Source: Nannocystis bainbridge
GTDB taxonomy: Bacteria; Myxococcota_A; Polyangia; Nannocystales; Nannocystaceae
DNA length: 64,000 nt
NCBI RefSeq assembly: GCF_028368995.1
Contig: NZ_JAQNDL010000002.1
Location: forward strand, 673,724 to 737,723
Direction of reading: 5' to 3'
Shown: one piece after another, positions 12,118 to 55,053 of the stretch
Layout of the letters: the number at the start of each line of letters is the position of its first letter
Position numbering within the stretch: position 1 is the stretch's first letter
Program-made: the position numbers and the translations under genes
Notes under the pieces: generated by a model
Seen by the model: the letters and a program-made list of their open reading frames with translations, nothing else
The model's database searches: none
Told to the model about the DNA's origin: nothing

Positions 12118-12301
12118 GCCCTTGGCTCGGCTCACGGTCCTCCTTTTATCACGCCGGCGCGACGCCCTCCGCGGTCCGGACATTCGACCGAGCGGCGCCC
12201 CTCGCGCGCTGGCTGCATCGGCCCAAACCGCCTCCAGGCCGTCGCCTGCACCAACTTTTCCTGAGCTTGCTCAGCATATCGGCCTCGGCTAGTGTCGTTT
12301 C

Positions 12302-28027: not shown

Positions 28028-29782
28028 GTGGCTCAGAAGTACGTAGGACTCGACCTCGGCACCTCCGAAGTCAAGGCCGTGCTCATCAACGCCGGCCTGC
28101 GCACCATCCAGGTGCTCGAGACGGTCGTCGAGCCGGTGACGCTCACGCCGCAGGGCGACACGTCGCTGGCGGCCGCGCTCGACATCGGCATCGCCGTGCT
28201 GCGCCGCCGCGGCTGGAACCACTACCCGATCGGCGTGGTGCTGCCGGGCAGCTTCGCGGCCTACCGCGTGTTCAAGTTCCCGTTCAGCGACCCGCGCCGG
28301 ATCGCCCAGGCGATCGCGTTCGAGGCCGAGGGCCAGTTCCCGGTCCCGCTCGAGAACCTCGAGCTCGACCACGTGCCCGCGACCGTCGCCGGCGGCGGCG
28401 GTCAAGCGCTCGCGGTCGCGGTCCGCCGCTCGGCGATCGACCAGGTCCAGGCCGCGTTCAAGGCCGCGACGATCGACGTCAAGCTGATCACCGTCGACGT
28501 CCTGGCGACCGCGCAGGTGCTCACCGCCGACCTGCCCGAGGCGGCCAAGGGCGCGCCGGCCGAGGCGCGCACGCCGGTGGTGCTCGGCCTCGACATCGGC
28601 CACGCGACCACCGACCTGGTGGCGTTCGGCGCCAAGGGCCCGGTCGCCGCCCGCATGCTCCGCCGCGGCGGCGTTCACGTCACGCGCGCGCTGCAGCAGC
28701 GCTACCAGCTCAGCGACGCCGAGGCCGAGGCCGCCAAGCGCGACAACGCCTTCCTGCCGCACCGCGGCCAGGGCGACCTGACGGCCGAGCAGATGGAGTC
28801 GGCGACGCTCGTGGCCCGCGCGCTCGAGCCGGTGGTGCGGGAGATCGAGCACACGCGGATGTGGCTGCGGGCCGAGTTCGCGGCCGAGGTGGTGCAGCTG
28901 CGGCTGTCCGGCGGCGGCGCCAACCTGCGCGGCCTCGACGCCTACCTGGCCGAGCAGCTCGGGCTGCCGACCGAGCGCGCCCGTCCGCGCGAGAGCCTCG
29001 GCCTCAAAGGTCTCGCGGGACATGACTGGACGGCCATGTCGGCCGCGCTCGGCGGCGCCGTCGGCTGCGCCCGCCGGCCGCTCATCCAGCTGCACAAGGA
29101 CGCCGCCGTCCAGCGCGGCGGCGACGGCAGCTGGATCGCCGAGCGCATCGCCACCGTCGCCGCGCTCGGGTTCGCGATCCTGGCGTTCGGCGTGGTCGAC
29201 ACCGTGGTCGGCATGAGCGCGCTCGAGGCGGAGCGCATGGCCTACGAGGAGGAGCTCGGCGAGGCCAGCAACAAGGTGTTCGGCGAGACGCTCACCTCGA
29301 AGGCCGAGATCGAGGACCGCCTCAACGCCGTCGACGGCCGCGACATCACCAAGCTGATCCCGCAGCGCGGCGCGCTCGACGTGCTCGCGGGCTTCGTCAA
29401 GGCGGCCACGCCGAGCGGCGCCAAGCCGCCGCCGACGCCGCTGCCGGTGGTGGAGGGCGAGGGCGGCGTCGTCTCCGACGACAGCTCGCCGGCGACGACG
29501 CCGACGGCTCCGGTCCAGCTGCCCTCGGTCGACCCGGCCTCGGGCATCGCGTGGGACGACGAGTTCGTGCTGTCGCTGATCGAGATCCGGCCGCGCGCGA
29601 TCCAGTTCCGCGCCTCGGCCACGCGCTCGTCGGCGCAGGAGCGGTTCAAGAACAAGCTGCTGCAGGCGCTGCCCTGCGTCATCCCGTTCCAGGTCGGCAA
29701 GGTGCGCGACGAGGGCACCAAGAAGGTGTTCGACCCCAACATCGAGCACGACTGCTACAGCAGCACGGAGACCGAGTCGTGA
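28028..29782 (+). CDS. gspL: type II secretion protein GspL (PilM-like actin-fold cytoplasmic domain + TM + periplasmic domain)
   Basis: N-terminus MAQKYVGLDLGTSEVKAVLI (PilM/GspL actin-like fold), central TM WIAERIATVAALGFAILAFGVV, periplasmic C-terminus; gene order. Confidence 0.6.
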   Translation: MAQKYVGLDLGTSEVKAVLINAGLRTIQVLETVVEPVTLTPQGDTSLAAALDIGIAVLRRRGWNHYPIGVVLPGSFAAYRVFKFPFSDPRRIAQAIAFEAEGQFPVPLENLELDHVPATVAGGGGQALAVAVRRSAIDQVQAAFKAATIDVKLITVDVLATAQVLTADLPEAAKGAPAEARTPVVLGLDIGHATTDLVAFGAKGPVAARMLRRGGVHVTRALQQRYQLSDAEAEAAKRDNAFLPHRGQGDLTAEQMESATLVARALEPVVREIEHTRMWLRAEFAAEVVQLRLSGGGANLRGLDAYLAEQLGLPTERARPRESLGLKGLAGHDWTAMSAALGGAVGCARRPLIQLHKDAAVQRGGDGSWIAERIATVAALGFAILAFGVVDTVVGMSALEAERMAYEEELGEASNKVFGETLTSKAEIEDRLNAVDGRDITKLIPQRGALDVLAGFVKAATPSGAKPPPTPLPVVEGEGGVVSDDSSPATTPTAPVQLPSVDPASGIAWDDEFVLSLIEIRPRAIQFRASATRSSAQERFKNKLLQALPCVIPFQVGKVRDEGTKKVFDPNIEHDCYSSTETES

Positions 29783-36106: not shown

Positions 36107-36418
36107 ATGCACCGCCTCACGCCCGGGCTCGCCGGGTTCGCCCTGCTCCTCGTCGCCTGCGCCGGCTCGGGGCCTCCGCCTCAACCTGTCCCGGAGGACA
36201 GCCTCCGCGCGGCCGCCCCCGAGGACGCGGGCGGCTCGTGCTCGGCCAGCGCCGAGTGCCCCGGTGCCGCGCCGGTCCGCTGCACCGGCAAGGGCGAGGG
36301 CCGCTGCCGCGGCGAGGACGGCGTCGGCTGCCGCTTCGAGCCGCTCACGGGCCCGCCGCAGACCCGCTGCTGCGACGGCTCCGACAGCTGCACGTTCACG
36401 CCGCTGTCGGGCCCCTGA
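36107..36418 (+). CDS. small Cys-rich lipoprotein, hypothetical
   Basis: aaaaaggaggg RBS then ATG 36107; MHRLTPGLAGFALLLVACAG signal peptide with lipobox LVAC; 10 Cys in about 80 mature residues. Confidence 0.5.
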   Translation: MHRLTPGLAGFALLLVACAGSGPPPQPVPEDSLRAAAPEDAGGSCSASAECPGAAPVRCTGKGEGRCRGEDGVGCRFEPLTGPPQTRCCDGSDSCTFTPLSGP

Positions 36419-36442: not shown

Positions 36443-36500
36443 TGTCTGAATCGACATGTTCTTCAAGGCATGTCTCGGAAGCCATGTTCTCGCTCGCGCT
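36443..36500. repeat. short array (about 3-4 units) of the 14-bp GGACATGTCC-family repeat
   Basis: acatgttcttcaag / gcatgtctcggaag / ccatgttctcgctc. Confidence 0.6.
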
Positions 36501-36550
36501 GACCAGGGCGAGCGCGCTTCGAGGTCCGGTGACCAGATGCTCGTTCGGAG

Positions 36551-36694
36551 TCTGTCTGTAAGGACATGCTCTTTCGAGCATGTCCCGCGGCCAGGGATCA
36601 GCCGGCCGAGCTGTCGTCTGGGTCTGTCCGTAAGGACATGCTCTTTCGAGCATGTCCACCGGCCAAGAAACAGCCGGCCGAGCGGTTTTTAAGT
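36551..36694. repeat. two direct copies of an about 72-bp repeat, each containing the perfect palindrome GGACATGCTC-TTTC-GAGCATGTCC
   Basis: tctgtctgtaaggacatgctctttcgagcatgtcccgcggccagggatcagccggccgagc vs tctgtccgtaaggacatgctctttcgagcatgtccaccggccaagaaacagccggccgagc; lies at convergent junction. Confidence 0.8.
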
Positions 36695-37695
36695 GACCTG
36701 CTCTTCCGGCAATGTCCCGGCGACCAGGTGCTCGAGCCAGCCGGCGAAGCGCGGGCCGGTGAGCCCGTGGCCGAGGTGGTAGCGCAGCTCGGCCTCGACG
36801 GCGCCGCGCCAGGCCTCGATCTCGCCCGAGCCCGCCAGCAGCTCGCCCACGGTGGCGTCGCCGAGCCCGGCGACGACCTCGTTCAACACGGCCTCGATCT
36901 CGGCGGGCAGGCGGTCCCACGCGGCGACGGCGACCAGCGCGGCGTGGAGATCGCGGGCGACCACGGCAGGGTCGAGCTTGAGCAGCTCGGCATGCAGCGC
37001 CGACTCCGGCAGGTCGAGCAGCGAGGCCAGGACATCGCCGCGAAAGGCCGCGCCCTCGCTGGCGTGCCTGGGGTCGCTGACGCGATCGACGATCATGTCG
37101 ATCACGCGACCGACCGCGCCGTCGACGAAGCCGCGCACGCGGTCCTCGACCGAGGCGTCGAGGCCGACCGCGGAGGCGACGCCCTTGGCGACGCCGAACA
37201 GCTTGGAGGTCACGCCGGCGCCCGGGATCTTGCTGGTGTCCGGGAAGATCGAGCCGACCTTCTTTGCGAAGTCGAGCAGGGTGGTGTGGAGGATCGTGCG
37301 CGACAGGTCGCGCACGGTCGCCTGATCGACGACGGCCCGCACGAGCGCGCGGCTCGGCGTGTAGGGCCTGCGGACGACGCTGCGGAGCAGCGGCACCAGC
37401 TCGCCGGGCAGCCGCGCGCGCACGCTGCCCTGGCGCGGACGGATCCGCCCGAGCGCGTCGCGGAGGCGCTGCTCGAGCCATGACGCGTGGCCGGGCGCGG
37501 CGGCGGCGGCCTGCAGGCCGGTGACGATCAGCGGGGTCAGCCGGACGGGATCGACGAAGCGACGTGCGGGCGCCGCGAGGACCTCGTCGACCAGCAGCGC
37601 TGCGAGCGCGGCGAGGTAGCGCGGCTCGTCGCGCAGTCGCGCGAGGAGGGCAGGGACGTGGGGCACGCCGGCCCTATACCAAGCTTCCTGCACCA
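36689..37695 (-). CDS. hypothetical protein
   Basis: Minus-strand ORF 36689..37936 with good codon bias; true start uncertain (GTG about 37692-37695 at VVQEAWYRAG; the ATG at 37777 would overlap the divergent gene start); no domain recognised. Confidence 0.4.
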
Positions 37696-37775
37696 CGGAT
37701 ACGCTGGTCTCACGACGCGCTCTCGCCGGCCTCTCGCCGAGACCCGGCCCTGACAAGGCGCGTTGTCCCGCCGCC

Positions 37776-38642
37776 ATGCACAGCCGCAACGTCGAGATCA
37801 AGAGCCCCTGCCACGAGTCGTGGGACGCCATGCACGGCGACGAAGCGCGCCGCTTCTGCGATGTCTGCGCCAAGCACGTGCACAACCTCTCGGCGATGTC
37901 CCGGCAGGCCGCCACCGATCTCCTGACGGAGCACAAGGGCCAGCACCTGTGCGTCCGCTACTCGAACCAAGAGGACGGCCAGATCGCGTTCCGCGACACC
38001 GTTCCGCTGTCTCGCCTGCGTCCGGTGCGGACCGCCTTTGCAGCGATGATGCTGGCCGCCTGCGCCCCGCACGGCGACGGCCCGCCGATCCAGGACCTCG
38101 GCGACATCGCCATCGAGGCGATGGCCCGCGACGCCAGGCCGTCGCCCGAGGGCGGCTGCGAGGTCCAGACCGGGCCGTTCACGACGATGCACTTCCCCGC
38201 GAGCCACGAGGTGTGCCGCAACGTCGTCGACATCGGGGCCCAGATCCGTCCGCCCGTGGCGCCGCCGCCCGAGCCGCCGCCGCCGATGCCGACGATGGGC
38301 GCCGCGCCCGTGGCGATGGACCCGCCGCCGCCGCCGCCCGGTGAGGAGCTGATGGGCAAGGTGGCGCCGCCCGAGCACGTGAAGATGGGCGAGGCGACGC
38401 CCGACGCGAAGGAGCCGTGCGACCCGCAGGCCTTCGCCCCGCCGCCGCCGGACCCGCCGCCGTCGATGCTGATGGGCCAGGCGGTCGCCCCGGAAGCGCT
38501 CCAGCCGCCCGCGCCGCCGCCCCCCGCGGAGCCGCTGATGGGCGACGTGGTCGCCGACATCCCGCCGCCGCCGCCGCCGACCGCGAGGATGGGCCGGGTC
38601 GCTCCGAAGACCGGCAAGGTGAAGGTGCCCGCCGGACTCTGA
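37776..38642 (+). CDS. putative zinc-finger membrane protein with proline-rich repeat ectodomain
   Basis: N-terminus CHESW...RRFCDVCAKHVHNL (Cys/His cluster), predicted TM/anchor RTAFAAMMLAACAPHG, then five repeats of the form PPPPxPPxxLMGxVAP. Confidence 0.5.
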   Translation: MHSRNVEIKSPCHESWDAMHGDEARRFCDVCAKHVHNLSAMSRQAATDLLTEHKGQHLCVRYSNQEDGQIAFRDTVPLSRLRPVRTAFAAMMLAACAPHGDGPPIQDLGDIAIEAMARDARPSPEGGCEVQTGPFTTMHFPASHEVCRNVVDIGAQIRPPVAPPPEPPPPMPTMGAAPVAMDPPPPPPGEELMGKVAPPEHVKMGEATPDAKEPCDPQAFAPPPPDPPPSMLMGQAVAPEALQPPAPPPPAEPLMGDVVADIPPPPPPTARMGRVAPKTGKVKVPAGL

Positions 38643-38666
38643 GGTCGCGTCGCTGCGGGTGGGAAG

Positions 38667-38750
38667 GGCATGGCCTCGCGGCCATGCCCTTTCGTACATG
38701 TCCTCGAGGGCATGTTTTTATGGGCATGGCCTTTGGCTCATGCTTCGCCG
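38667..38750. repeat. array of 6 units of the 14-bp repeat
   Basis: ggcatggcctcgcg / gccatgccctttcg / tacatgtcctcgag / ggcatgtttttatg / ggcatggcctttgg / ctcatgcttcgccg. Confidence 0.85.
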
Positions 38751-38852
38751 AGCCCGCCGCGGACCCGGCCCGCGACCGCGGTCACGGCTCCTCCGCCCGA
38801 GCGTCCGCGGGGCGAGGCGGCCCTCGCACCGGCCCTCGCACCTGGCCTGCGG

Positions 38853-38908
38853 GTCATGCCCTCACGGCCATGTCCTCAAAGACATGGCCGCAGCGACATG
38901 TCCTCACG
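38853..38908. repeat. array of 4 units of the 14-bp repeat overlapping the stop codon of the large minus-strand gene
   Basis: gtcatgccctcacg / gccatgtcctcaaa / gacatggccgcagc / gacatgtcctcacg; the last unit supplies the TGA (38904-38906, minus strand). Confidence 0.8.
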
Positions 38909-41900
38909 GACCGGTGGTGAAGTCCTCGCGGTTGCTGTCCCACCAGGCCTGCCAGGCGCGCAGCGCCAGGTCCCGGCTGCGGCGGTCGCCCTCGGCGGGG
39001 AACGGGATCCGCTGGCCGGTGATCCGCGCCAGCTCGTCGGCGGCCCACCGGCGCACGGCCTCGTCGCGGTGACGCAGGCCGTCGATGACCCACTCGATGC
39101 GCGGCTCCTGGCCGTGCTCGGCGTACCAGGCCCGCCAGCGCTGGGCGCGGTAGCCGTGGTGCTTGGCGGTGATCGAGCACAGCGCCTCGAGCGCGGCCTC
39201 GCGGACGTGCTTGTCGCGCACGGCCAGCAGGTCGATGAGGCGCGGCACGGCCAGGGTGTCGCGCAAGGTGCCGGCGGCCTCGACCGCGAGCAGCTGCCGG
39301 TCGTGGTCCTCGCTCTCGAGATCGCCGCGGATCTCCGCGGCCACGGCGGCGAAGTCGGGCACGCGGCTGTACGACTCGAGCACGCGGGTGGCGATCAGGC
39401 GCACGTCGGGGTCGGGGTCGAACGCCAGCTCGGCGAGCGGCCGCAGGCACCGCGGGTCGCGCAGCTCCTGGAACAGGAACGCGGCGTAGAAGCGGATCTG
39501 CGGCCGCACGCTGGCGAACAGCGCCAGCACGTGGGGGCTGACGGCGTGCCCGAGCTCGACGCAGGCGCGCAGCAGCGGGCCGTGGGCGCTCGGCGGCGGG
39601 AAGGTGGTCGCGTTGGCGAGGTCGATGGGGCCGGGGAAGCGCGCGGCGAGGCGAGCCAGGCCGCGCTCGTCGAGCGCCCGCAGGCGCGAGACGCTGGTCC
39701 ATTCGGCCGGGTTCTGCAGGAAGGCCTCGAGCACGGCGTCGATCTCGCGCTCGTCGAGCGCCGTCGTCGGGCCCGCTTCGGCCGGCCTGTCGGCGGGCGC
39801 CGCGTCGGTCGGCGGCGCGGCGGCTGCAGACGCGGTCGCGGCGGCCTCGGTCGCGTCGTCGCGGGGGGTGTCCTCCGCGACATGCCCTTCGGGACCGGTC
39901 TCGGAGGACATGTCCTCGGGGACATGACCGGAAGTGCTGGAGGAGGCGGCCGGGACGTCGTCGGCCTCGCGCACCAGCCGCGGCATGGTCAGGACGTCGG
40001 ACGAGGCCTCCGGGCGCGGCTCGTGCTTGGCGCGGCGCCGGCCGCTGCGCGGGCCGATCAGGGTGGTCGGCATCGACAGCGTCGGGCCGCCCTCGAGCTC
40101 GTCGGGGCCGCTGCGCCGGGCCATCGGGTGCGGCGTGGCGGTGAGGCCGCTCGAGCGCCGCAGCGTCTTCGGGATCACCAGCACCGGCTCCTCCGCGCTC
40201 GGCTCGGCGGGACGGCGGCGCCTCACGGCCCCGGGGGTGCCGGGCGGCGCGACGAGGTTGGGGATCAGCGGCCCGGATGCGCCCGGTTCGACCAGCGGCG
40301 GGATGTCGAGCACGGTCTTGGCGTCGGGCGCGGCGAGGCTCTCGACCAACAGCGGCGCGTGCGTCAGCGGCGGCGAGAGGTCGAGGATCGTCGGCGTGTC
40401 GGAGGCGGCGCGCGGCCAATCGTCGAACTCGGGGTCGGGCAGGCCGCCCCGCGCGGTCTCGTCGAGCATCACCCGCGGCGCGCCGGGCAGCGTCGAGGCC
40501 GGGTCGTGATCGACCCGGGCGTCGGCGGCGGACCGCAGCGCGCTGGCGACCGGCAGCGGATCCTCGATGCCCGAGGGCTCGGCGGTGGCGATCCAGCCGG
40601 GCATGTCGGCCCGGGCAGCCGCGGGCGGCCCGGAGGTGTCCGAACGACCATGTCCGAAGGTGCCTGGCCGATCGGTCAGGTCGATGGTGACGGTCGGGAC
40701 CGGCGGGCGCGTGAACATCGCCGCGAAGCGAGCCACGAGCGGGCTGTCGGGGCCGTTCTCGGGGCCGAGCGGCACCGGCACCGGCGCCAGGCCGAGGCCG
40801 GGGCCGTCGCGCCGCGGGGGCGGGCTGTCGGCCTCGTGATCGTCGGTGAGGTCTTCGTAGTCCTGCTCGTCCGCGCTCGGTTCGGGCTCGTCGGCGCTCG
40901 GCTGGGCCCGCACCACCGCGGAGCTCTCGGCGCGGACCGGCAGCGGGGTGACGGTCGACGGATCGTCGCGGCGGATCGGGTTCTTCAGGGTGATGATGCC
41001 GCGGCCACGGCTGCTGCTGCTGCTGCTGCTGCTGCCGCTGCTGCGCCCGCGCGAGCGGCTGGCCGCGCTGCTGCTGTCCCCGAAGCCAGGTTCATCGGTC
41101 AGCCGGGCGGGGCTAGGCGGCGGCTCGTCCGGAGTCTCCGGCGCTGCGGCGGCGACCGCGGGCTCGGGCTCGGGCTCCGGGATGTCCTCGGGGACAGGTG
41201 GCACGGCGGCCGGCGCGTCGGCCTCGTCTTCGCTGACGATCGGGTGCGGGCGGACGGACGGGCGCGCGCGGTCGGCTGCTCCGGCGCCGACGGTGCCGCC
41301 GGGCACCACCCAGCCGAGCAGACGCAGCAGGGCCTCGAGGCTCTGGCGGGCGGTGTCGCACAGCTCGCGCAGGACGGTGCGCTCGCGCGGATCGAAGGCG
41401 ACGCCGGCGCGGTCGACGTAGAGCATCAGGACCGTGCGACCGCCGGCGAGCACCGGCTCGAAGATGCAGGGGATCCCGAGCGGCTGGCCGACGGCGAACG
41501 ACAGGCTCGGCTCGATCAGGAGGTGCAGCGGGCCCTGGCCGGACACCGCGCGATCGAGCAGGCCGCCCTCGGGCAGCGGGATGACGAGGCCCTCGGACAG
41601 CCTGAGCGCGCTGCCGGGGGCCGCCAGCACGCGCAGGCCCTCGCGCTTGACGCCGAACAGGGCCACGCGCGGGGCGACCAGCGAGGCGGCCTTGACCAGC
41701 GCCTCGGTGATCCGGTCGCGCTCGCGCGCGGTCGCCAGCGCGGCCCGGGCGGCGTCGAGCCGCTGGGCCAGGGTCATGACCATCGCCTGCGGGAGGGCCG
41801 GGGGCTTCTTGGTCGAGGACTCGATCAACGCCTCGTCGGCGCCGACGACCGCGGCTTCGGAAGCGCTGGTCGAAGGGACAGGTGCGGCGTCCGCCGGCTC

Positions 41901-44123
41901 GTTGGATCTGGCCGAAGAGACAGGTAAGGCCGAGCCCGCCGGCGCGGGAGAGCTGGCCGAAGCGACAGGCGGAGCTTCTTCCAGCGCGGTGGAGCTGGTC
42001 GAAGAGACAGGTGAGGCCGAGCTCGCCGGTGCGGGAGAGCTGGTCGAAGAGACAGGCGGAGCGGCTTCCGACGGGCGAGTGGCGCTGTCGTTCGCGCCGG
42101 GAGCGAGGTTGTCGGGCGGCGTGGTGGCGGCGCCGACGGGGATGCCGACCAGGGTGCGGCGGTCCGCGAGACCGGAGGAGTCCCTCGCGCGGGGCGTGGG
42201 CCGGGTCGTGGGCGCCGGCGGGAGGATGATGAGCGGCGTATCGGGGGCGATCGCCATCCCGGCGAACGAGCCGCCGCCGTCGTCGAACCCACGCGGGGGA
42301 ACGAGCGGCGCGTCAGGGGCGACGGGCACGGGGTCGAAGCTCGACGGCCGGGTCGGCGACGGTTGCGGGGCGGGGTTCGCGGTGATGCTCGCCGAATCGG
42401 TCTCGGGCGCGCTGTCGTAGGCGGCCGTCTGACGGCTGGCAGCGGGGGTGGGGGCGGGGTCGTCGGTGAGGCTGTCCTCGAGGCCAGGCTGCTGCGCGTG
42501 CCGTGAGGCCCGGGCCGCGTCGGCTGCGAACGCCTCGGTGAGGGCGCTGGGCTCGCCCTTGTTCGCGGGGCGCGCGTCGGGGATGGTCGCGGCGGGCCTG
42601 TCCTCGGGGACAGCTGCGGCGAGGTCCGAGGACCTGTCCGGAGAGGCAGGTGCCGAACCCGACGGCTCGCCGGCCGCGGACGGCGAGGTCGCGGGGACAG
42701 GCTGAGGCAGATCGACCCGGGCCGTCGAGCCTTCGGCGGCAGGACGCGACGAATCGACGGAGATGTCCTCGGGGACAGGCGCGAGCGACTCGTCGCGCGC
42801 GGTCGCGCCGTTGCCGGCTCCGCGCAGCGAGCCCGCGTCCGCAGGGCGGGGCGAAGCGGCCGTCGCGGAACCACTGGTAGCAGGGCTCCCGGCGAGCCCG
42901 GAGGCGCGGGCGGCGGTGGTCGGACCGGACATCGCGGCCGGTCGGGGGCCGGCGTTTTGCCTGTCCGCGGGGACAGGTACGTCGGTCCCTCGCGCCTCGG
43001 TCAGCGGCGCCGCGGCGTCCTGGGTCGCGCCGAGCGCACGTGCATCGGCGGCGTCGCGCGGCCTGTCCGCTGGGACAGGCGCATCCGCGGCGCGGAGTTC
43101 GGGCGTCGCTCCGGCCGAGGTGTCGGCGGGGTTGTCCGCAAGGACAGGCGCTTCGGGCGAGGCGTCGGCGGGGCTGTCCGCAAGGACAGGCGCTTCGGGC
43201 GAGGCCTCGGCGGGGCTGTCCGCAAGGACAGGCGATTGGGCCGAGGCGTCGGCGGGGCTGTCCGCAAGGACAGGCGCCGTCGCCTCGTGAGCGTCGCGGG
43301 CCCCGGAGGCGTTCGCGGACTCGTCCGTCGCGCTCGCGTCGTCGGAGCCACCGATCTCACCCGGCGCGACCTCATCCTCGGCCATGTCCGAAGAGACAGG
43401 CCGCTCGTCGCTCGTCGACAAGTCGGGCGTCGCAGCCCCGGCGCCCGTCGAGCTGTCCGCGGGGACAGGTTCTCCGGCCGTCGGCGCATCGGCGACGGAC
43501 CGGACCGAAGAGCCAGGCGATTCGACGCCCGCCGGCTTGGCGGCGGCTGCGTCCCCGCGCTCGGCCTGCCTGTCCTCAAGGACATGTGCACTCGTCAGCT
43601 CGCTCGCCGGCCCGTGGGTGGGGACGAGGCTGATCGTGAGCGAGGAGGTGCGCATCGCCTCGAGATAGTCGAGCAGGATCAGCGCGTAGCGGGGCGCGAG
43701 GATCGAGCCGGTCCGCTCGGCCGCGATCTTGGCCAGGCAGCACTCGGGCGCGACCACCGGGTAGAAGCCGCGGACCATGCGATAAAGCTGGCCGAGCTTG
43801 GCGTCGGGCAGGTCGGGGTGGACGGCGACGATCAGGCGACCGTCCTCCTGCACGAGCGGCATGGCCCAGCCGATGTCGACCAGGTCGCGCGGGACGTGCT
43901 CCCACGGGCGGGCCGGCCCGCGCTCGAGCAGCCGCACCGGCGCGCCCGGGAGGCCGCACGCGCTCTGCAGCAGGTGATCGAGCTGCACCGGGGTCATCAG
44001 CCCGAGCTCGAGGATCGCGGTGTCGAGACTGCCGCCGGCTTGTTGCTGCCGCCGGGTCGCGGCCTCGAGATCGGCGCGCGACAGCGGACCGTTGGCTTCG
44101 AGGTGGCGCAGGAGGAGGCTCAC
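38904..44123 (-). CDS. large multidomain protein: N-terminal T2SS-E N-terminal (GspE-N/MshEN-like) domain, long acidic Pro/Ala/Ser-rich repeat region, C-terminal HEAT-like repeats
   Basis: GTG 44123 overlaps RDD stop as GTGA. N-terminal about 140 aa resemble the T2SSE_N fold. The centre is low complexity with 14-aa (42-nt) PVLADSPAEASPEA repeats and PVPED motifs. C-terminal HEAT-like repeats VREAALEALCSI, VRRWAADELARI. Opposite-strand ORFs inside are artifacts. Confidence 0.6.
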   Translation of the reverse strand: MSLLLRHLEANGPLSRADLEAATRRQQQAGGSLDTAILELGLMTPVQLDHLLQSACGLPGAPVRLLERGPARPWEHVPRDLVDIGWAMPLVQEDGRLIVAVHPDLPDAKLGQLYRMVRGFYPVVAPECCLAKIAAERTGSILAPRYALILLDYLEAMRTSSLTISLVPTHGPASELTSAHVLEDRQAERGDAAAAKPAGVESPGSSVRSVADAPTAGEPVPADSSTGAGAATPDLSTSDERPVSSDMAEDEVAPGEIGGSDDASATDESANASGARDAHEATAPVLADSPADASAQSPVLADSPAEASPEAPVLADSPADASPEAPVLADNPADTSAGATPELRAADAPVPADRPRDAADARALGATQDAAAPLTEARGTDVPVPADRQNAGPRPAAMSGPTTAARASGLAGSPATSGSATAASPRPADAGSLRGAGNGATARDESLAPVPEDISVDSSRPAAEGSTARVDLPQPVPATSPSAAGEPSGSAPASPDRSSDLAAAVPEDRPAATIPDARPANKGEPSALTEAFAADAARASRHAQQPGLEDSLTDDPAPTPAASRQTAAYDSAPETDSASITANPAPQPSPTRPSSFDPVPVAPDAPLVPPRGFDDGGGSFAGMAIAPDTPLIILPPAPTTRPTPRARDSSGLADRRTLVGIPVGAATTPPDNLAPGANDSATRPSEAAPPVSSTSSPAPASSASPVSSTSSTALEEAPPVASASSPAPAGSALPVSSARSNEPADAAPVPSTSASEAAVVGADEALIESSTKKPPALPQAMVMTLAQRLDAARAALATARERDRITEALVKAASLVAPRVALFGVKREGLRVLAAPGSALRLSEGLVIPLPEGGLLDRAVSGQGPLHLLIEPSLSFAVGQPLGIPCIFEPVLAGGRTVLMLYVDRAGVAFDPRERTVLRELCDTARQSLEALLRLLGWVVPGGTVGAGAADRARPSVRPHPIVSEDEADAPAAVPPVPEDIPEPEPEPAVAAAAPETPDEPPPSPARLTDEPGFGDSSSAASRSRGRSSGSSSSSSSSRGRGIITLKNPIRRDDPSTVTPLPVRAESSAVVRAQPSADEPEPSADEQDYEDLTDDHEADSPPPRRDGPGLGLAPVPVPLGPENGPDSPLVARFAAMFTRPPVPTVTIDLTDRPGTFGHGRSDTSGPPAAARADMPGWIATAEPSGIEDPLPVASALRSAADARVDHDPASTLPGAPRVMLDETARGGLPDPEFDDWPRAASDTPTILDLSPPLTHAPLLVESLAAPDAKTVLDIPPLVEPGASGPLIPNLVAPPGTPGAVRRRRPAEPSAEEPVLVIPKTLRRSSGLTATPHPMARRSGPDELEGGPTLSMPTTLIGPRSGRRRAKHEPRPEASSDVLTMPRLVREADDVPAASSSTSGHVPEDMSSETGPEGHVAEDTPRDDATEAAATASAAAAPPTDAAPADRPAEAGPTTALDEREIDAVLEAFLQNPAEWTSVSRLRALDERGLARLAARFPGPIDLANATTFPPPSAHGPLLRACVELGHAVSPHVLALFASVRPQIRFYAAFLFQELRDPRCLRPLAELAFDPDPDVRLIATRVLESYSRVPDFAAVAAEIRGDLESEDHDRQLLAVEAAGTLRDTLAVPRLIDLLAVRDKHVREAALEALCSITAKHHGYRAQRWRAWYAEHGQEPRIEWVIDGLRHRDEAVRRWAADELARITGQRIPFPAEGDRRSRDLALRAWQAWWDSNREDFTTGP

Positions 44124-47093: not shown

Positions 47094-48119
47094 ATGGTGC
47101 CGGTGGCGATGGCACGAGGGCGGCTCAGCGTCGAGGCGTACGCGGCGGGGGTGCGAGCCGGCGATCGAGCAGTGCTGGCGCGGGCGATCACGCTGGTCGA
47201 GAGTCAGCGGGCTGACGACCAGGAGCTGGCGCGCGCGCTGGTGTCGGCGCTGCAGACGGAAGATCTGCGGACCGGCGGGGCGCTGCGAGTCGGCATCACC
47301 GGCAGCCCGGGGGCCGGCAAGAGCACGCTGATCGAGGCGCTCGGCCTGCATCTGGTGCGCGAGCTCGGCCGCCGCGTCGCCGTGCTCGCGGTCGATCCGA
47401 GCTCGGTGCGCAGCGGCGGCAGCATCCTCGGCGACAAGACGCGCATGCAGGAGCTGGCCCGCGAGCCGCGGGCCTTCATCCGCCCGTCGCCGTCGCTCGG
47501 CGAGCTCGGCGGCGTCGCTCGCCACACCCGCGAGACGGTGCTGCTGTGCGAGGCCGCGGGCTTCGACGTCGTGCTGGTCGAGACCGTCGGCGTCGGCCAG
47601 TCCGAGGTGATGGTCGCGCAGCTGGTCGACTGCTTCCTCGTCCTCATGCTCGCCGGCGCCGGCGACGAGCTGCAGGGCATCAAGCGCGGGATCCTCGAGC
47701 TCGCCGACATCCTCGCCATCACCAAGGCCGACGGCGACAACCTCGCCGCGGCCGGGCGCGCCCGCGCCGAGTACGCCCTGGCGATGCGCCTCATCCGGCC
47801 GAAGCACGCCGGCTGGTCGGTGCCGGTCGTCACGACGTCGTCGGTCACCGGCGCCGGCCTCGCCGCGCTGTGGCAGACGGTCGAGCGCCACCGCGAGGCC
47901 CTCCAGGCCGGGCCGGCGTGGCAGGCCCAGCGGGAGGCGCAGCAGGTCTACTGGCTGTGGCGAGCGATCGAGGCCGAGCTGATGCGCCGTTTCGCCGCCG
48001 ACCCCGAGGTGCTGGCCCGCAGGCCGGCGCTCGAGGCCGGTGTCCGCGCCGGCCGCGTCAGCCCCGACCACGCGGCCGCTGAACTGCTCGCGGCGTTCAC
48101 CCGCGCGTCGGGGCAGTAG
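47094..48119 (+). CDS. meaB: methylmalonyl-CoA mutase-associated G-protein chaperone MeaB/ArgK
   Basis: VGITGSPGAGKSTLIEAL P-loop, LVETVGVGQSE switch, ITKADGDN NKxD-like motif; 341 aa. Confidence 0.85.
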   Translation: MVPVAMARGRLSVEAYAAGVRAGDRAVLARAITLVESQRADDQELARALVSALQTEDLRTGGALRVGITGSPGAGKSTLIEALGLHLVRELGRRVAVLAVDPSSVRSGGSILGDKTRMQELAREPRAFIRPSPSLGELGGVARHTRETVLLCEAAGFDVVLVETVGVGQSEVMVAQLVDCFLVLMLAGAGDELQGIKRGILELADILAITKADGDNLAAAGRARAEYALAMRLIRPKHAGWSVPVVTTSSVTGAGLAALWQTVERHREALQAGPAWQAQREAQQVYWLWRAIEAELMRRFAADPEVLARRPALEAGVRAGRVSPDHAAAELLAAFTRASGQ

Positions 48120-48139
48120 CGGTTCCATATTAAAGAGAG

Positions 48140-48237
48140 GACATGTTCCGAGGGGCATGTCCTGGCGGGCATGTTCGAATGGGCATGTTTTATCAGCCAT
48201 GTCTTGAAGGGCATGCTTATTGCGACATGTTCCTCGC
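48140..48237. repeat. array of 7 units of the 14-bp repeat
   Basis: gacatgttccgagg / ggcatgtcctggcg / ggcatgttcgaatg / ggcatgttttatca / gccatgtcttgaag / ggcatgcttattgc / gacatgttcctcgc; starts 21 bp after meaB stop. Confidence 0.9.
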
Positions 48238-48654
48238 CCAGTGCTCGGTTCGAGCGAGAGGGGTGCTTGCGACCGGCACTTGGCGCTCGCAGCGAGAGTC
48301 GGCCGGTCGCAATCGCGGTGGAGCGGGGCGCTCGGCCTCCGCAAGTGCGAGCACGGCCGCGCTAGCCTCGGCTCGCGGGCGTGCGCTGGGGGCCAATTTC
48401 GGTCGCGGGCGTCTCTCGTCGATGTGGCGAGACGTTCGGCGAACGCGGCGATCTCGGTGAGCTTCGCCCTGCGGATCGGCTTGCATGCGAGCTGCCGTGT
48501 CGCGCGTCGTGATGACTCGCTGGGCCGAGCGGCCGCGGGGCCCTGCGATTTCCTCATGGCCCGTCGACTTCCTGGCGGCCTTTCGAGAACCACCGCGTCT
48601 TCACGCTGCGCCGATCTGTGCGCAGCGAGGCCGGCCGCCGTATCATGCCCCGGT

Positions 48655-50050
48655 GAGCGTCGACATCGACCGGTTGCTCGAGCTGTTCCGCCGTCACCTC
48701 CCGCTGCGCGCCGGGTCCGTCGAGGTCGCGTTCGCCTCCGAGGTTGAGCCGCCGGTGTGGCGCAACGAGGCGGGGTACCCGGTCGTCGCGTTGCGGCTGA
48801 CGACGTTCGACCCGGACGACGGCGTCGTGCCGCTCGACATCAAAGCGCAGGAGGTGTGCATCGGCGACGACCGGGAGCACCCGCCCGAGCGCTGGCTGGC
48901 GTTCGTCGAGGGGCACCTGCGGGCGATGCCCGCGATCCTCGGGCACGTCGAGGAGTCGGACACGCTGATGCCCTCCGATCTGTTCGTGTACGAGGCCGTG
49001 CTCACCGACGCCGGGCTGCAGCGGGCCGACGAATTTGCCGCGGCGCTGCGCGATCCGGTCCGCCTCGCCGCGATGCAGGCGGCCGCGGGTGAGGCCGAGT
49101 GGCGTGAGCGGCTGGAGCCGCTCGGTCTCGCCGAGCACGTCGCCGAGGTGCGCGCCATGGCCCGCCCGTCGATCCGCCTGCACCTGTCCCGCGTCGAAGG
49201 GGAGGACGAATACGACGACGAGGATGACGAGGACATCGACGACACCGAGAACACCGACGCCGTCGACGATGCGACCTGTCCAACCGGCCAGACGCGCCTG
49301 GGTGGCGACCCCGACCTGCCGCCCGAAATGCCGTGGCCCGAGGTCGACGGCGTACCGTTGACCTTCGTCGCCCAGTTCGACCTCGCCGGGCTGGCGCGCC
49401 GCGACGCCGCCAGCGAGCTGCCCGCGAGCGGCCTCCTGAGCTTCTTTTACGCCCCGAGCCCCCCCGACGGCGTGCGCGGCCACCCCGTGCGGGTGCTCCA
49501 TCTCACCGACCTCGATACGCTGGTGCACCGCCCGGCCCCCGCGGCCGTCGAGCGGCTCGCCGCGTACGACATCGACACCGCGGACGAGCTGCAGTACCCG
49601 GGCGTCGACAGCCACTTCTTCTACGAGGCGCTGTTGCCCGAGGCGCGCATCCTCGAGGGCCATCGTCAGCGGCAGCAGGGCGAGGGGGGCGAGCTCGTCC
49701 CGTTCAACCCGCTCGCGTGCTTCATCGCCGAGTCCGAGCAGCTCGACGCATTCGAGCGGCCGACCCACCGCCTGCTCGGGCACCCGTCGGCGATCCAGGG
49801 GGACCCGTACCTCGACGTCGAGATCGATACCCGCCCGCAGGGCTGGGACGGCTGGGAGGACGGTTCCCACGAGGCGCTGCAGGTCCGCCGGCGATCGCTG
49901 CGCTGGCGGCTGCTGCTGCAGATCGACGCCCAGGAGCACGGCGGCCCGCTGCTCAACCAGGACGGCGGCTTTTTCTATTTCTGGCTCCCCGCCGACGCCC
50001 TGGCCGCCCACGACTGGTCGCAGGCGCGCGGGTCCCTGCAGTGCCACTGA
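48655..50050 (+). CDS. DUF1963 (YwqG-like) domain protein
   Basis: C-terminal half: CPTGQTRLGGDPDLPPEMPWPEVDGVPLTFVAQFDLAGL...LPASGLLSFFY matches DUF1963 pattern; acidic DE-rich linker; start uncertain (GTG about 48655; ORF open from 48485). Confidence 0.55.
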
Positions 50051-50061
50051 GGCTGGAGCTC

Positions 50062-50160
50062 CGGGACATGTCCGGGAGAGCATGTCCGATGGGTCATGCT
50101 CTCGCGGACATGCACCGATGGACATGCCTGAGAGGACATGTCCGGAGCGACATGCCTCGC
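50062..50160. repeat. array of 7 units of the 14-bp repeat
   Basis: gacatgtccgggag / agcatgtccgatgg / gtcatgctctcgcg / gacatgcaccgatg / gacatgcctgagag / gacatgtccggagc / gacatgcctcgcta; fills convergent gap between DUF1963 gene and MATE gene. Confidence 0.9.
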
Positions 50161-50169
50161 TAGACGGCG

Positions 50170-51629: not shown

Positions 51630-53216
51630 TCAGGTCGCGCGCGCGAACTGAGCCGTCGCCGGATCGACGAGGCTGTCGACGCTCACGCGCCCGTTGCTGG
51701 CGAGGTGTCGCAGCACTTGCCACACGGCCACCGGGTCGGTGCCGAGCGCGTCGGCGAGCTCGCGGCAGGTCTTGCCTCCGGAGCCGGGCAGCGCCGCCAG
51801 CACCGCCGTCTGCAGCACGAGCACGCCCTGGGCGGCCTTTTTGCCGGCCTCGACGCCGGGCTGGTGGTACGCGTTGACGTCGATGAGCTCGGCGTAGATC
51901 CCGACGGCGCGCTCGAACAGCGCGATCAAGGCGCCGACCGAGGTCGCGCTGACCTCGCGCAGGACGATCGTCGCGCTGGCCCGACCGCGCTCGGCGAGGG
52001 CGGCGCGGGTGCCCTGATAGAAGCCGTCGAGGCAGTCGCCCGAGCTCACCTGCGGCTCGACCTCGACGGCGCCGGGGCCGTTGGCCGGGCCGTCGAGATC
52101 GCGGAGCACCCGCACGAACACGGCGAAGAAGTTGTGGAGGCCGTCGCGCAGCTGCTGCACGTAGGCGTGCTGGTCGGTCGAGCCCTTGTTGCCGTAGACG
52201 GCGAGGCCCTGCCACACCTCGCGCCCCTGGCGATCGAGGCGCTTGCCGAGCGACTCCATCACGAGCTGCTGCAGGTAGCGCGACATCAGCGACAGGCGAT
52301 CCTTGTATGGCAAAATGACCATGTCCCGAAGGCCATGTCCGGAGCCCTGCTGATGCCACATCCAGGCCAGCAGGGCGGCGGGGTTGCGCCGCGCCGGGCG
52401 CACGCGGCCCCACTGGTCCATGGCCGCGGCGCCGCGCAGGAGGGCGCGCCAGTCGTGGCCGAGCAAGGCGGCGGGCAGGAGGCCGACGGGCGAGAGGACG
52501 CTGGTGCGGCCGCCGACCCAGTCCCACATCGGGAAGCGGGCGAGCCAGCCCTCGCGCTCGGCGAGCTGATCGAGGGTGCTGCCCTCGCTGGTGATGGCGA
52601 TCGCCCGCTTCGGGAATTCGATGGCCTGGCGGGCGCAAGCGGCCCGCAGCTCGAGCATGCCGTTACGCGTCTCGACGGTGGAGCCCGACTTGGAGACGAC
52701 GAGGATCAGGGTCTGCGCGAGCGTACCTGTCTCTGCGAGCAGGTCGGCGATGCCGGCGGGATCGGTGTTGTCGAGCACGCGCAGGCTGAAGCCGGGGCCG
52801 CTGTCGCGCGCGGTGAGGGCAGCCTCGAGCAGCTGCGGGCCGAGAGCGCTGCCGCCGATCCCGACGAGGATGGCGCCGGTGAACGGGCGGCCGTCGTCGG
52901 CGAGGATCTGGCCGCCGCGCACGCCCTCGGCGAAGGCTTCGATCTGGTTCCAGCTGGCCTGGATGGCCTGGGAGAGCGCGGGATCGGGGGCGCGCTCGGG
53001 GTCGCGGAGCCAGTAGTGGCCGACCATGCGCCCCTCGTCGACGTTGGCGACGGCGCCGCCCTCGATCCGGTGAAGAGCGTCGAGCGCAGCCTCCAGCCGC
53101 GCGGCATTGGCGGTCAAGGCGGGCTCGTCGAGCTGGGCGTCGGCGAAGTCGAGCTCGATGTCGAGTTCGCCACGGTAAAGGCGCCAGGTGAGGTAGTGGT
53201 CGAGTGGGTCGGCCAT
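51630..53216 (-). CDS. pgi: glucose-6-phosphate isomerase
   Basis: Start MADPLDHYL (53216); PGI signatures ILVGIGGSALGP, VVSKSGSTVET, GGRTSVLSPVG; contains an internal in-frame copy of the repeat at 52318..52346 (GSGHGLRDM). Confidence 0.85.
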   Translation of the reverse strand: MADPLDHYLTWRLYRGELDIELDFADAQLDEPALTANAARLEAALDALHRIEGGAVANVDEGRMVGHYWLRDPERAPDPALSQAIQASWNQIEAFAEGVRGGQILADDGRPFTGAILVGIGGSALGPQLLEAALTARDSGPGFSLRVLDNTDPAGIADLLAETGTLAQTLILVVSKSGSTVETRNGMLELRAACARQAIEFPKRAIAITSEGSTLDQLAEREGWLARFPMWDWVGGRTSVLSPVGLLPAALLGHDWRALLRGAAAMDQWGRVRPARRNPAALLAWMWHQQGSGHGLRDMVILPYKDRLSLMSRYLQQLVMESLGKRLDRQGREVWQGLAVYGNKGSTDQHAYVQQLRDGLHNFFAVFVRVLRDLDGPANGPGAVEVEPQVSSGDCLDGFYQGTRAALAERGRASATIVLREVSATSVGALIALFERAVGIYAELIDVNAYHQPGVEAGKKAAQGVLVLQTAVLAALPGSGGKTCRELADALGTDPVAVWQVLRHLASNGRVSVDSLVDPATAQFARAT

Positions 53217-53830
53217 GTCGGGGCGCTTTATAGCAGCGTCGGGGGCGGCTGGGCTCGTGCTCGGCGGGGCTGTTCGCTTGCTCGGTGGGCTGAGGTCGGT
53301 CGGAGCGCTGCAGAGCGGCTGGGTTCGCGAACTGCCGGTGCCGCCTCGCGGGCGGTCAGGGACGCGGGTCGGCGCCCAGTCCTCGCGGATGCTCCCTCCT
53401 TCGTCGGGCGCATCTCGCTGCGGATGGGCGCCGACCCGCGTCCCCGACCGCTGCACGGCTGGCCTCGTGGGTGGCTCGAGCGCCGGTCGTCGGCTTCGAC
53501 GTGGGGCCTGGACTCCGCGGTGTGGCTTTCCGTGGGATGGCCGGCCGGGGCCGGCCGGCCATCCCGCGGACCTCTGGGCGAACTATCCGGCGCTCGTCGA
53601 GGCGCGACGGGCCTGCGCGACGCGAGGGTCGTCTGCGTCGCGGCGGACCTCCGGTGGCGGGGCTCGTTCGCGAGAGATCGTCGGTTGCGGGGCTCAACTT
53701 CGCTGCGATACGCGTCCGCGATGCAGAGGCCCGTCCGCGTTGCGGAGCCCATCAGCGGCGTGGGGGCTCGTCGCGCTACGTCGGGGAGGGGCGCTCGCCG
53801 GCTGCGCTCGCTGTGAGAGGTGGCCTCATG

Positions 53831-53914
53831 TACATGTCCTTTGGAGAATGTTCCAAGGGACATGTCTGCGAGGACATGGTGGAAAGAGCATGCTCAAAAG
53901 AGCATGTCCTCGGG
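53831..53914. repeat. array of 6 units of the 14-bp repeat
   Basis: tacatgtcctttgg / agaatgttccaagg / gacatgtctgcgag / gacatggtggaaag / agcatgctcaaaag / agcatgtcctcggg; directly downstream of UDPGP gene stop. Confidence 0.9.
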
Positions 53915-53928: not shown

Positions 53929-55053
53929 TCAGCCGGGATCGAGGCCGACGCTCTTGACGATGGCGGTCATCGCGGGGCGGGCGGCGGCGAGGTCGTCGCG
54001 GGTCTTGATCGGGAGGAAGCGGGCGCGGTCGACTCGCAGGCAGGCGGTGCGGGCGAATTCGGTGATCTGGCCGATGAGCTGTTCGAACTGGATGACGGCG
54101 AGGTCGTCACGGCCGGGCCACTCGACGGCGCGCTCGACGGGGAACCAGGTGAGGGGGTAGGGGCGCTCGAGCGCGGCGAGGGAGATCCACAGGGTGTTGG
54201 TGTTGAAGTGCGGGTACTGGGCGAGAGAGGTGCCGGGAGGGAGGCGGAAGGACTCGATGATGGTGGCACGGCCGTCGAGGTCGGCGACGCAGCCGCCAGC
54301 GTCCTCGGGGGCGCGAGCGACGACCTCGACGCTGAGCTCGGCGCCGCCTTCGACGGCTTCGAGGTGAGCACCGAGGACGGTGGGGTCGAGGGAGGCGCCG
54401 AGGTTGTCGACGTTGGAGACGAGGAGGTGCTCGACGCCGCGGGCCCGCAGCTCGGCGACGATGCCGCTGTCGCGGACGCGCCGCAGGGTGTCGCCGTGGC
54501 CAGGGGCGGCGTAGACGGTGGTGTCCGGCAAGAGGTCGGCGCCGGGCAGGGTGACGAGCGGAGTGCCGTCGGGGAGGACGCGCGGCATGAGCGACTGCAA
54601 GAACTCGTGACGATCACGCTCGGGGATGCCCGACCAACCAAGGGTGGCGAGGTGATCGCGGGAGGCGGCAGCGGTGGCGAAGCTGTGCATGACGACCGCG
54701 GGGACACCAGCGGCGCGGACACCAGCGAGCTTGACGGCGAGGAAGGAGAGGTCGGGCCGGTCGGGCAAGACGGGGACGACGCCCTTGACGACGCCGCCGA
54801 ACCTCGTGGCCATGCCGCCGTTCAAGATCAGGGCGGCGACCTTGCGCGCAGCCAGAGCTGCCTCGCCGCGGGCCCGCCTGGCAGGGCGGGCGTGAGGCTC
54901 GTCGAGGTCGAGCAAGGCGTCGTCGCCGAGCGGGCGCGGCGGGGCAGGCAGGCGAGCGCGCGTGGGGCTGAGCTCGCCGCGGGCGAGGGCGCTGCGCAGC
55001 TGATCGAAGAGAGCAGCGTCGAAGGCGATGTCGGCGACCGAGGGGCGGAGCAT
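53929..55053 (-). CDS. UTP--glucose-1-phosphate uridylyltransferase (UDPGP family, eukaryotic-type)
   Basis: ILNGGMATRFGGVVKGV nucleotide-binding loop, VSNVDNLGA; 374 aa. Confidence 0.7.
   Translation of the reverse strand: MLRPSVADIAFDAALFDQLRSALARGELSPTRARLPAPPRPLGDDALLDLDEPHARPARRARGEAALAARKVAALILNGGMATRFGGVVKGVVPVLPDRPDLSFLAVKLAGVRAAGVPAVVMHSFATAAASRDHLATLGWSGIPERDRHEFLQSLMPRVLPDGTPLVTLPGADLLPDTTVYAAPGHGDTLRRVRDSGIVAELRARGVEHLLVSNVDNLGASLDPTVLGAHLEAVEGGAELSVEVVARAPEDAGGCVADLDGRATIIESFRLPPGTSLAQYPHFNTNTLWISLAALERPYPLTWFPVERAVEWPGRDDLAVIQFEQLIGQITEFARTACLRVDRARFLPIKTRDDLAAARPAMTAIVKSVGLDPG

Follow-up and report, generated by a model that had tools for sequence, protein, structure and literature searches.

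Phased arrays of a 14-bp CATG-centred palindrome at the 3' ends of Nannocystis genes: candidate transcription-unit-end elements

Our analysis of a 64-kb stretch of the Nannocystis bainbridge genome (contig NZ_JAQNDL010000002.1; hereafter the window, meaning the whole stretch at its full length) identified a dispersed family of short tandem arrays, typically 3–7 contiguous units of exactly 14 bp built around the tetranucleotide CATG, that sit at the ends of transcription units and above all where two genes converge. These arrays have been retained at their sites since before the Nannocystis species diverged, and selection has kept the 4-bp core, the G/C positions of the arms and the exact 14-bp register, not particular base pairs or copies. 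We tentatively interpret the arrays as transcription-unit-end elements specific to Nannocystis and similar to the repetitive extragenic palindromic sequences and bacterial interspersed mosaic elements (REP/BIME) of enterobacteria, in which hairpins would act together with a sequence-specific reader, a reading that we find plausible but hold with reserve.

The unit consensus was A-[A/C]-G-G-R-CATG-Y-C-C-n-n, the centre of its dyad falling on CATG without a loop. In a position matrix of 292 units, an A/T-rich position (-5) and an A or C (-4) were followed by G (0.75), G (0.69) and R (0.86) on the left side of CATG, and by Y (0.89), C (0.65), C (0.72) and two weakly T-rich positions on the right side. 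The matrix was symmetric overall, CATG being the invariant part of the unit and the arms following the consensus at about 70%. A preliminary description of this DNA had proposed a 10-bp palindrome followed by a 4-bp variable spacer; the 14-bp period proved to be exact, whereas the spacer turned out to be A/T-enriched and loosely symmetric. The perfect palindrome GGACATGTCC, which had been taken as the basic unit, is not typical, as it was slightly under-represented among the cores (14 observed vs 19.8 expected), the commonest cores being GGACATGCCC and GGGCATGTCC. The 358 cores comprised 162 distinct sequences, and the numbers of units with 0, 1, 2, 3 and 4 mismatches (65, 138, 99, 41 and 10) matched a model of independent positions (64, 131, 107, 45 and 10), which argues that there is no master copy. 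A hairpin within the unit, with a GGR/YCC stem and a CATG loop, was ruled out, since complementarity was at or below expectation; for the bases flanking CATG (G..T 70, A..C 64, A..T 55, G..C 34) it was below.

The register of the units was strictly kept. Over 443 kb, 317 pairs of CATG were found 14 bp apart in comparison to 2 at 13 bp and 5 at 15 bp, and 206 pairs were 28 bp apart in comparison to 7 at 27 bp and 2 at 29 bp. Distances in the window followed the same pattern (34 pairs at 14 bp, 22 at 28, 17 at 42 and 10 at 56, with none at 13 and one at 15); CATG at exactly 14-bp spacing occurred at about ten sites, and eight arrays held at least three phased CATG, approximately one per 8 kb. 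Past the last CATG of an array there was one decayed unit, often carrying CAGG or CACG (changes towards GC), and then no signal. The arrays were AT-richer than the background, as the preliminary description had observed, with a GC content of 56% compared to 71% for the window. Within the window, GGACATGTCC occurred four times (0.06 expected) and GGRCATGYCC six times (0.3 expected). The possibility that the motif is at chance frequency, or its periodicity confined to the window, was therefore not borne out, the motif being strongly over-represented and the periodicity genus-wide.

The nature of the core also allows an epigenetic interpretation, in which RCATGY or CATG would be the target of a methyltransferase or restriction-modification system and its clusters would be methylation-dependent signals, like those of SeqA and GATC. 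RCATGY is an NspI-type site, CATG is an NlaIII-type site, and SeqA reads clustered GATC. Although an invariant 4-bp palindrome is typical of type II recognition sites, and ACATGT and GCATGC were under-represented within units relative to GCATGT and ACATGC, we consider this interpretation very improbable, as CATG showed no depletion elsewhere than in the arrays (291 in the window vs 169 expected from base composition) and methylation leaves the 3'-end position, the GG/CC arms and the 14-bp register unexplained.

When 185,579 species genomes were scanned for a pattern of five CATG, each 14 bp from the next, at least 116 loci were returned. Among the matches listed, 34 loci came from five Nannocystis species and had the same degenerate, palindrome-cored units, while each locus from outside Nannocystis was a plain microsatellite, its 7- or 14-bp units being near-identical. 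Nannocystis DNA amounting to 336 kb contained 65 arrays of at least three phased CATG, compared to 0.05 in shuffled sequence, and one unit consensus was common to six Nannocystis species. Arrays were absent from three outgroup loci encoding the same protein family (Nannocystaceae ST9 and two metagenomic relatives, 56% GC), and a closer uncultured relative (65% protein identity, 72% GC) had short degenerate arrays past stop codons. The preliminary description had matched these repeats to no described family, and none was found here: an Rfam scan of the whole window at gathering thresholds gave no matches, and no extragenic repeats of Nannocystis or other myxobacteria were found described in the literature. 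A phage origin was rejected, viral contigs having yielded only four isolated two-unit matches and no arrays. The occurrences of GGACATGTCC in the literature were confined to papers on the p53 half-site, a coincidence of consensus.

Since whole units separate the gap lengths of different species, and since the matches outside Nannocystis, among those listed, were all plain microsatellites, it must be considered whether the arrays are ordinary slippage microsatellites or variable number tandem repeats (VNTRs) without function. This explanation we regard as effectively refuted. Near-identical neighbouring copies, as in a VNTR, were not seen: units within an array shared 4.3 of 10 variable positions in comparison to 4.03 for random pairs, and neighbours that are almost as unlike as random pairs argue that the arrays are not recent slippage products. 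Slippage would equally not account for the strict positional bias, for position-specific constraint, or for approximately one array per 8 kb with a single consensus across six species. The exception was an N. pusilla array (locus L080, 3544-3627) of six near-identical units CGGACATGCACGTT, a 'young' array that resembles a recent expansion of one unit by slippage and may show how an array can be born.

The position of the arrays relative to genes was examined with flanking coding strands called from codon-position GC. For the 56 arrays with both sides called, 33 lay at convergent and 23 at co-directional junctions, and none at a divergent junction. Every convergent gap of at least 40 nt in the window contained an array (4/4), compared to 3 of the 19 co-directional gaps and none of the 4 divergent ones. 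At the junctions of fetched loci that lay outside the ascertainment, arrays were present at 9 of the 18 convergent junctions, at 12 of the 71 co-directional ones and at 2 of the 31 divergent ones. None of the fetched loci overlapped the window. These counts uphold the siting at 3' ends and convergent junctions, like that of REP/BIME, that had been noticed beforehand. The distance from a stop codon to the start of an array was 0–32 nt, and the arrays are therefore presumably transcribed, from one side or from both, as a 3' untranslated region (3'UTR). The three occupied co-directional gaps in the window were all long (533–1089 nt) and had the array next to the upstream stop; co-directional arrays lay 16–30 nt from the upstream stop and 400–960 nt from the next start.

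Table 1. Arrays and related features of the window, with their genic context
Feature	Coordinates	Strand	Composition	Context
array	1764..1861	.	2 units, degenerate 28-nt middle, 3 units	30 nt 3' of stop of gene 603..1733(+)
weak/decayed array	11226..11309	.	1 unit at 11226, 2 units at 11282-11309	convergent gap, + gene ending 11224 vs - gene 11407..12135
3-unit array	36451..36492	.	3 units	convergent gap; 32 nt 3' of stop of + gene 36107..36418
72-bp tandem duplication	36549..36683	.	1.9 copies, 90% identical	ends 6 nt short of stop of - gene 36689..37915
6-unit array	38665..38748	.	6 units	22 nt 3' of stop of + gene 37776..38642
4-unit array	38851..38906	.	4 units	second array in convergent gap shared with 38665..38748
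intragenic array	39863..39932	.	5 unit positions, 3 with CATG	low-complexity linker of HEAT-repeat gene 38904..44123(-)
7-unit array	48138..48235	.	7 units	18 nt 3' of stop of MeaB-like gene 47094..48119(+); 417 nt before DUF1963 gene start
7-unit array	50063..50160	.	7 units	fills convergent gap; 12 nt past DUF1963 stop (50050), 9 nt before MatE stop (50170)
array	53829..53912	.	6 unit positions, 5 with CATG	16 nt past stop of UDPGP gene 53929..55053(-); ~610 nt from pgi start

All eight loci that had been listed beforehand carried units in 14-bp phase, that at 11226-11309 being weak, but the list was incomplete, as it had missed the intragenic array of the HEAT-repeat gene (Table 1). The latter is translated as GHVPEDMSSETGPEGHV, with the codons GAG GAC ATG TCC read as EDMS and GGG CAT GTC as GHV, and two to three of its units were conserved in five species, which suggests that the array entered the coding sequence before the genus diversified. 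The stop codon of the same gene (38904-38906, minus strand) falls within the last unit of the adjacent 4-unit array. In the 6-unit array of that gap, units 1, 2 and 5 were mutually complementary variants (GGGCATGGCC / GGCCATGCCC). What had been described as a longer derivative with a 72-bp repeat was merely a tandem duplication of a three-unit block plus flank, each copy including a 10+4+10 hairpin GGACATGCTCTTTCGAGCATGTCC (at 36562-36585 and 36634-36657).

At 29017-29044 and 52316-52343, two CATG pairs spaced by 14 bp stood isolated, each with partial GG/CC arms and each within a coding gene (28028..29782 on the plus strand and pgi, 51630..53216, on the minus strand). Each of the five other species had the pgi pair at the corresponding place (two-unit matches near 13543-13714 of loci L117-L121). 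Such pairs may be chance occurrences or remnants. The array at 1764-1861 is followed by a noncoding span (1734-2822, ~1.1 kb) in which no frame had a codon-position GC signal and which is unusually long for the N. bainbridge genome.

Synteny of the focal genes was conserved in N. sp. RBIL2, N. pusilla, N. exedens, N. punicea and N. radixulma, and the same four junctions held arrays in most of these five species. The DUF1963 protein, encoded between the two 7-unit arrays, was 100% identical to a protein of N. bainbridge. The convergent gap between the DUF1963 and MatE genes was 119 nt in N. bainbridge, with seven units, and in four species it consisted of array throughout, at 55, 69, 69 and 69 nt (4x14-1 and 5x14-1). 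The array on the MeaB side was present in three species with long gaps, including N. exedens and N. punicea, and absent in RBIL2 and N. pusilla, where the gap is only 87 nt, while the array on the UDPGP side (53829..53912) had orthologues in four other species. Unit sequences compared between species were about as unlike as random pairs. For a position-specific measure, arrays were ascertained in one species and the aligned base was scored in a close relative. Identity was 96–100% for CATG; counting outwards from CATG in the left and right arm (x and y), it was 0.84 and 0.78 at the first base, 0.61 and 0.78 at the second and 0.91 and 0.87 at the third, and it was 0.53–0.65 in the spacer. The 14-bp register was retained in orthologous arrays while the spacers diverged.

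In a comparison of 50051-50169 with loci L117-L120, it was also observed that four species have convergent stops (TGA ... TCA) at mirror positions in the terminal units, and that in the predicted fold of these four species the mirror stop codons pair with each other (CUGA/UCAG). TGA was also frequent in array spacers.

As each unit of a tandem palindrome is an inverted repeat of its neighbours, strong hairpins arise automatically in both transcripts, a consequence that the preliminary description had overlooked. Both strands of the arrays folded strongly in our predictions, with a minimum free energy (MFE) of -40 to -75 kcal/mol and z-scores of -4 to -7 for most; against dinucleotide shuffles the z-scores ranged from -3.3 to -7.3, with one antisense strand at -1.6. 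The region 50051-50170 gave -75 kcal/mol on the plus strand and -66 on the minus strand (z about -7), and the 6-unit array at 38665..38748 gave -65 and -54 kcal/mol, respectively. In N. exedens, the entire 69-nt gap including both stop codons was predicted to form one nested hairpin. These hairpins require at least two units, as a single 14-bp unit cannot fold alone. The longest perfect inverted repeat averaged 9.06 nt in comparison to 7.79 nt in arrays of random units (p=0.0016), and inverse similarity between units was seen at lags 1 and 3 (z about 2.5) but was missing at 2 and 4. A specific conserved secondary structure was ruled out, since stability was near that of random-unit arrays and the order of units was irrelevant. 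Strand asymmetry through G-U pairs, of the kind that would point to RNA, was inconsistent between sets of arrays; the sense strand folded better in 15 of 23 co-directional arrays (p=0.03), an asymmetry that is possibly a replication-strand skew.

Canonical terminators of the hairpin-plus-T type were at chance level in this DNA (4 vs 5.5 expected, and 4 vs 2.8 expected). As these are not enriched, another end signal is needed. In computed folds, the arrays provide the stable GC-rich hairpin directly 3' of the stop that is a feature of intrinsic terminators, and they have neither a U-tract past the hairpin nor an A-tract before it.

The 3'-end position together with the folding potential suggests a role like that of REP/BIME, and by analogy with E. 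coli REPs the natural function of the arrays would be bidirectional termination and/or protection of mRNA 3' ends. In the mechanism that we propose, each unit, being a quasi-palindrome, could pair with any of its neighbours, so that both transcripts (or extruded DNA) would form stems of 10–16 bp and nested hairpins of -40 to -75 kcal/mol. These hairpins would block both RNA polymerase read-through and 3' exonucleases, making the array a bidirectional terminator or 3'-end protector that works without a U-tract. A candidate symmetric dimeric DNA-binding protein would in addition occupy each palindrome and polymerise along the array, turning about 120 degrees per unit, and the bound protein might strengthen the block by acting as a roadblock, or bring in further activities, e.g. 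a topoisomerase. That the units are read sequence-specifically is suggested by the invariant CATG, the matrix-like half-sites, the exact 14-bp register and the randomised spacers. The periodically binding protein that the preliminary description had put forward is plausible in view of the register and the half-sites. As the reader, a RAYT-like enzyme (RAYT, REP-associated tyrosine transposase) or a methyltransferase would be weaker alternatives to a dimeric DNA-binding protein. An array of the unit, AAGGACATGTCCTT x5, is proposed as a DNA probe.

It is important to note that several results weigh against this interpretation. The arrays barely out-folded arrays of random units (mean z -0.39, p=0.02) and had no advantage in stability over versions of themselves with the units reshuffled (p=0.09). 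There was also no covariation between the left and right arms within a unit among the 292 units, and together with the folding of random-unit arrays this indicates that the hairpin potential is mostly a by-product of the palindromic consensus. Hairpins, moreover, cannot explain the constraint on CATG and register, because a hairpin can accommodate indels in its loop and compensated changes in its stem. In the DUF1963/MatE gap of N. radixulma (55 nt) there was no CATG and the fold did not differ from shuffles (z 0.0); the gap without an array indicates that the element is dispensable there. Replacement of the array by an unrelated hairpin at this site was considered and discarded: the gap does contain an inverted repeat, yet it is no more stably folded than shuffled sequence. 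The antisense strand folded better in all five orthologous arrays on the UDPGP side, which is inconsistent with the sense-strand preference at co-directional junctions, and the sole unit pair with the T-run of a canonical terminator was at 38696-38715. No binding protein, methylase or transposase was identified; we infer transcription of the arrays, termination or stabilisation by them and the existence of a reader protein, transcription and termination from position only.

Several of these results can be interpreted in purely DNA-level terms, with the arrays serving as phased sites for a dimeric protein (nucleoid-associated, a roadblock or insulator, or a topoisomerase recruiter) where transcription units meet and with RNA hairpins being incidental. 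The arrays do have the properties of phased binding sites, namely a palindromic unit with independently varying half-site positions and an exact spacing kept in evolution. The register (317 pairs at 14 bp vs 7 at 13 or 15) fits this explanation better than RNA hairpins, whose loops should allow 1-nt indels, and the same can be said of the invariant CATG, the independence of half-site positions, the single consensus in six species and a hairpin stability hardly above that of random-unit arrays. Convergent junctions, the preferred sites, are where positive supercoils and polymerase collisions concentrate. We nevertheless consider this explanation unlikely, albeit deserving attention, as no candidate protein was found and a pure binding-site array does not need the significant, though modest, excess of complementarity between units. 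To our knowledge, no dedicated genome-wide protein system for transcription-unit boundaries exists in bacteria, which lowers the prior for such an explanation.

If such a system were present, it could take the form of a dedicated boundary system in which a candidate dimeric protein recognises GGRCATGYCC and polymerises over 3–7 sites in strict 14-bp register as a genome-wide roadblock terminator or supercoil insulator, a proposal that we put forward as doubtful. The system would be placed past stop codons and, of the convergent junctions that were sampled, at roughly half or more. If true, it would be an undescribed bacterial way to end transcription units, possibly compensating for missing canonical intrinsic terminators in a 12–13 Mb genome of 71% GC.

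Alternatively, the arrays may be selfish, non-autonomous elements, of the type in which REP doublets forming hairpins are paired with RAYT (REPIN/RAYT) or of another small insertion type, copied by a host transposase and tolerated only 3' of genes, any effect on the host being secondary. A RAYT-type mobile origin had been raised in the preliminary description and found no positive evidence here, and our assessment is that a selfish origin is improbable. The high copy number within a single genus is what such an element would produce, and unit number as well as array presence or absence varied at orthologous gaps; one array lies within a coding region (39863..39932), and the young N. pusilla array could be a recent product. 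REPIN-RAYT systems are also known to endure over very long times by vertical descent (bioRxiv 10.1101/2021.07.10.451892). However, no master sequence surrounded by close mutational variants prevailed in the population, as one does in REPINs, given 162 distinct cores in 358 units and neighbours almost as unlike as random pairs, and the unit is symmetric without a GTAG-like head. Flank analysis revealed no terminal inverted repeats, target-site duplication, conserved flank or head motif past the last unit, and array length varied by whole units and was not defined as in a miniature inverted-repeat transposable element (MITE) or insertion sequence (IS). A single IS or MITE with terminal repeats, which had also been considered beforehand, thus found no counterpart in the anatomy of the arrays. 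Orthologous arrays were held under position-specific constraint and were not decaying, and the ~130 kb of neighbouring syntenic DNA annotated with Pfam revealed no transposase, no whole-genome protein search having been made.

The window contained other repeated or structured elements. A segment of ~185 nt located 5' of pgi (53322-53506) was 86–97% identical in six Nannocystis species, while the surrounding intergenic DNA was unalignable, and was also found at 14611-14845 of locus L117 and at 14622-14802 and 9682-9862 of L121. On the pgi sense strand it formed a near-perfect hairpin of ~100 nt (MFE -141.6 kcal/mol, z -8). It belonged to no Rfam family, an E-value scan of 53200-53930 giving only chance miRNA-like matches. 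N. radixulma had a second copy, in sense orientation, ~140 nt 5' of the DUF1963 gene, and the segment may represent either a 5'-leader element or a hairpin that is mobile. At 41858-42069 and 43107-43277, the HEAT-repeat gene contained tandem repeats of 45 and 87 bp and a 42-bp repeat (4.1 copies, 92% identical) whose unit includes GCTGTCCGCAAGGACAGG, itself a small hairpin. All of them probably encode peptide repeats. At the start of the plus-strand gene 14311..15429, a 48-bp tandem repeat (14328-14509; 3.8 copies, 84% identical) had an AT-rich patch in each unit (GTGAAGGATAAAACGGC).

The ends of transcription units are poorly understood in very GC-rich bacteria without canonical hairpin-plus-U terminators, and the arrays constitute a concrete element, identifiable from its sequence and located precisely where such ends would be expected. 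Approximately one array per 8 kb would mean over a thousand per genome of 12–13 Mb. In REP-like repeats two constraints are commonly confounded, and the evolution of the arrays tells them apart, as pairing was weakly selected while core and register were strongly selected, and the latter points to a candidate sequence-specific reader. In practical terms, the arrays could be used as compact bidirectional insulator parts for myxobacterial natural-product clusters and as a genus marker.

The REP/BIME of enterobacteria and the REPIN-RAYT systems of Pseudomonas and E. coli resemble the Nannocystis arrays in comprising hundreds to thousands of extragenic palindromic copies. Further likenesses to REP/BIME are the bias to 3' ends and convergent junctions, a lineage-specific consensus, regular tandem clusters (BIME-2) and transcription into hairpins, which for the arrays we infer from position. 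Tandem REP arrays in regular clusters have been described (PMC3116915), and E. coli REPs act both as 3'UTR terminators and as mRNA stabilisers (bioRxiv 10.64898/2026.03.23.713779). The arrays are high-copy, extragenic and 3'-end-biased as REPs are, but a REP is an imperfect palindrome of 20–40 nt that folds on its own, in contrast to a 14-bp unit that cannot. Unlike REPs, the unit is also symmetric and without GTAG-type head or orientation; in place of an asymmetric head with inverted doublets, only weak inverse similarity at odd lags was detected. Arrays are, in addition, contiguous with an exact 14-bp period, and their copies are matrix-like and do not cluster near a master sequence.

Bidirectional intrinsic terminators share with the arrays a symmetric hairpin that is common to two convergent genes and located right past both stops. 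The arrays differ from them in lacking flanking A- and U-tracts, in stacking many quasi-identical units where a terminator has one hairpin, and in having a conserved CATG core that a terminator hairpin does not need.

Among protein-read arrays, the metboxes bound by MetJ are 2–5 abutting 8-bp palindromes AGACGTCT, and the omega repressor binds heptad arrays. Metboxes and omega heptads resemble the Nannocystis arrays in being contiguous short palindromes in exact register and degenerate around a consensus. They are bound cooperatively by dimers, whereas a cognate protein is only proposed for the Nannocystis arrays, and they occur in the promoters of a few regulated genes, in contrast to 3' ends at approximately one per 8 kb with a 14-bp period.

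The DNA uptake sequences of Neisseria, whose inverted pairs double as terminators, are similar to the arrays as a short protein-read motif kept genome-wide, with inverted copies 3' of genes that form a terminator hairpin. Unlike the array units, they are 10–12 nt long, asymmetric, common within genes and not found in phased arrays of 3–7. The mycobacterial interspersed repetitive unit (MIRU) VNTRs are tandem intergenic repeats of a high-GC genome that abut or overlap stops and vary in copy number between strains. MIRUs thus share with the Nannocystis arrays tandem intergenic repetition, high GC, contact with stop codons and variable copy number, but they are 46–101 bp in length, directional and non-palindromic, with near-identical copies. 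In summary, extragenic palindromic repeats at 3' ends are an already known class, within which contiguous arrays with an exact 14-bp period around an invariant CATG are a form for which we found no described counterpart.

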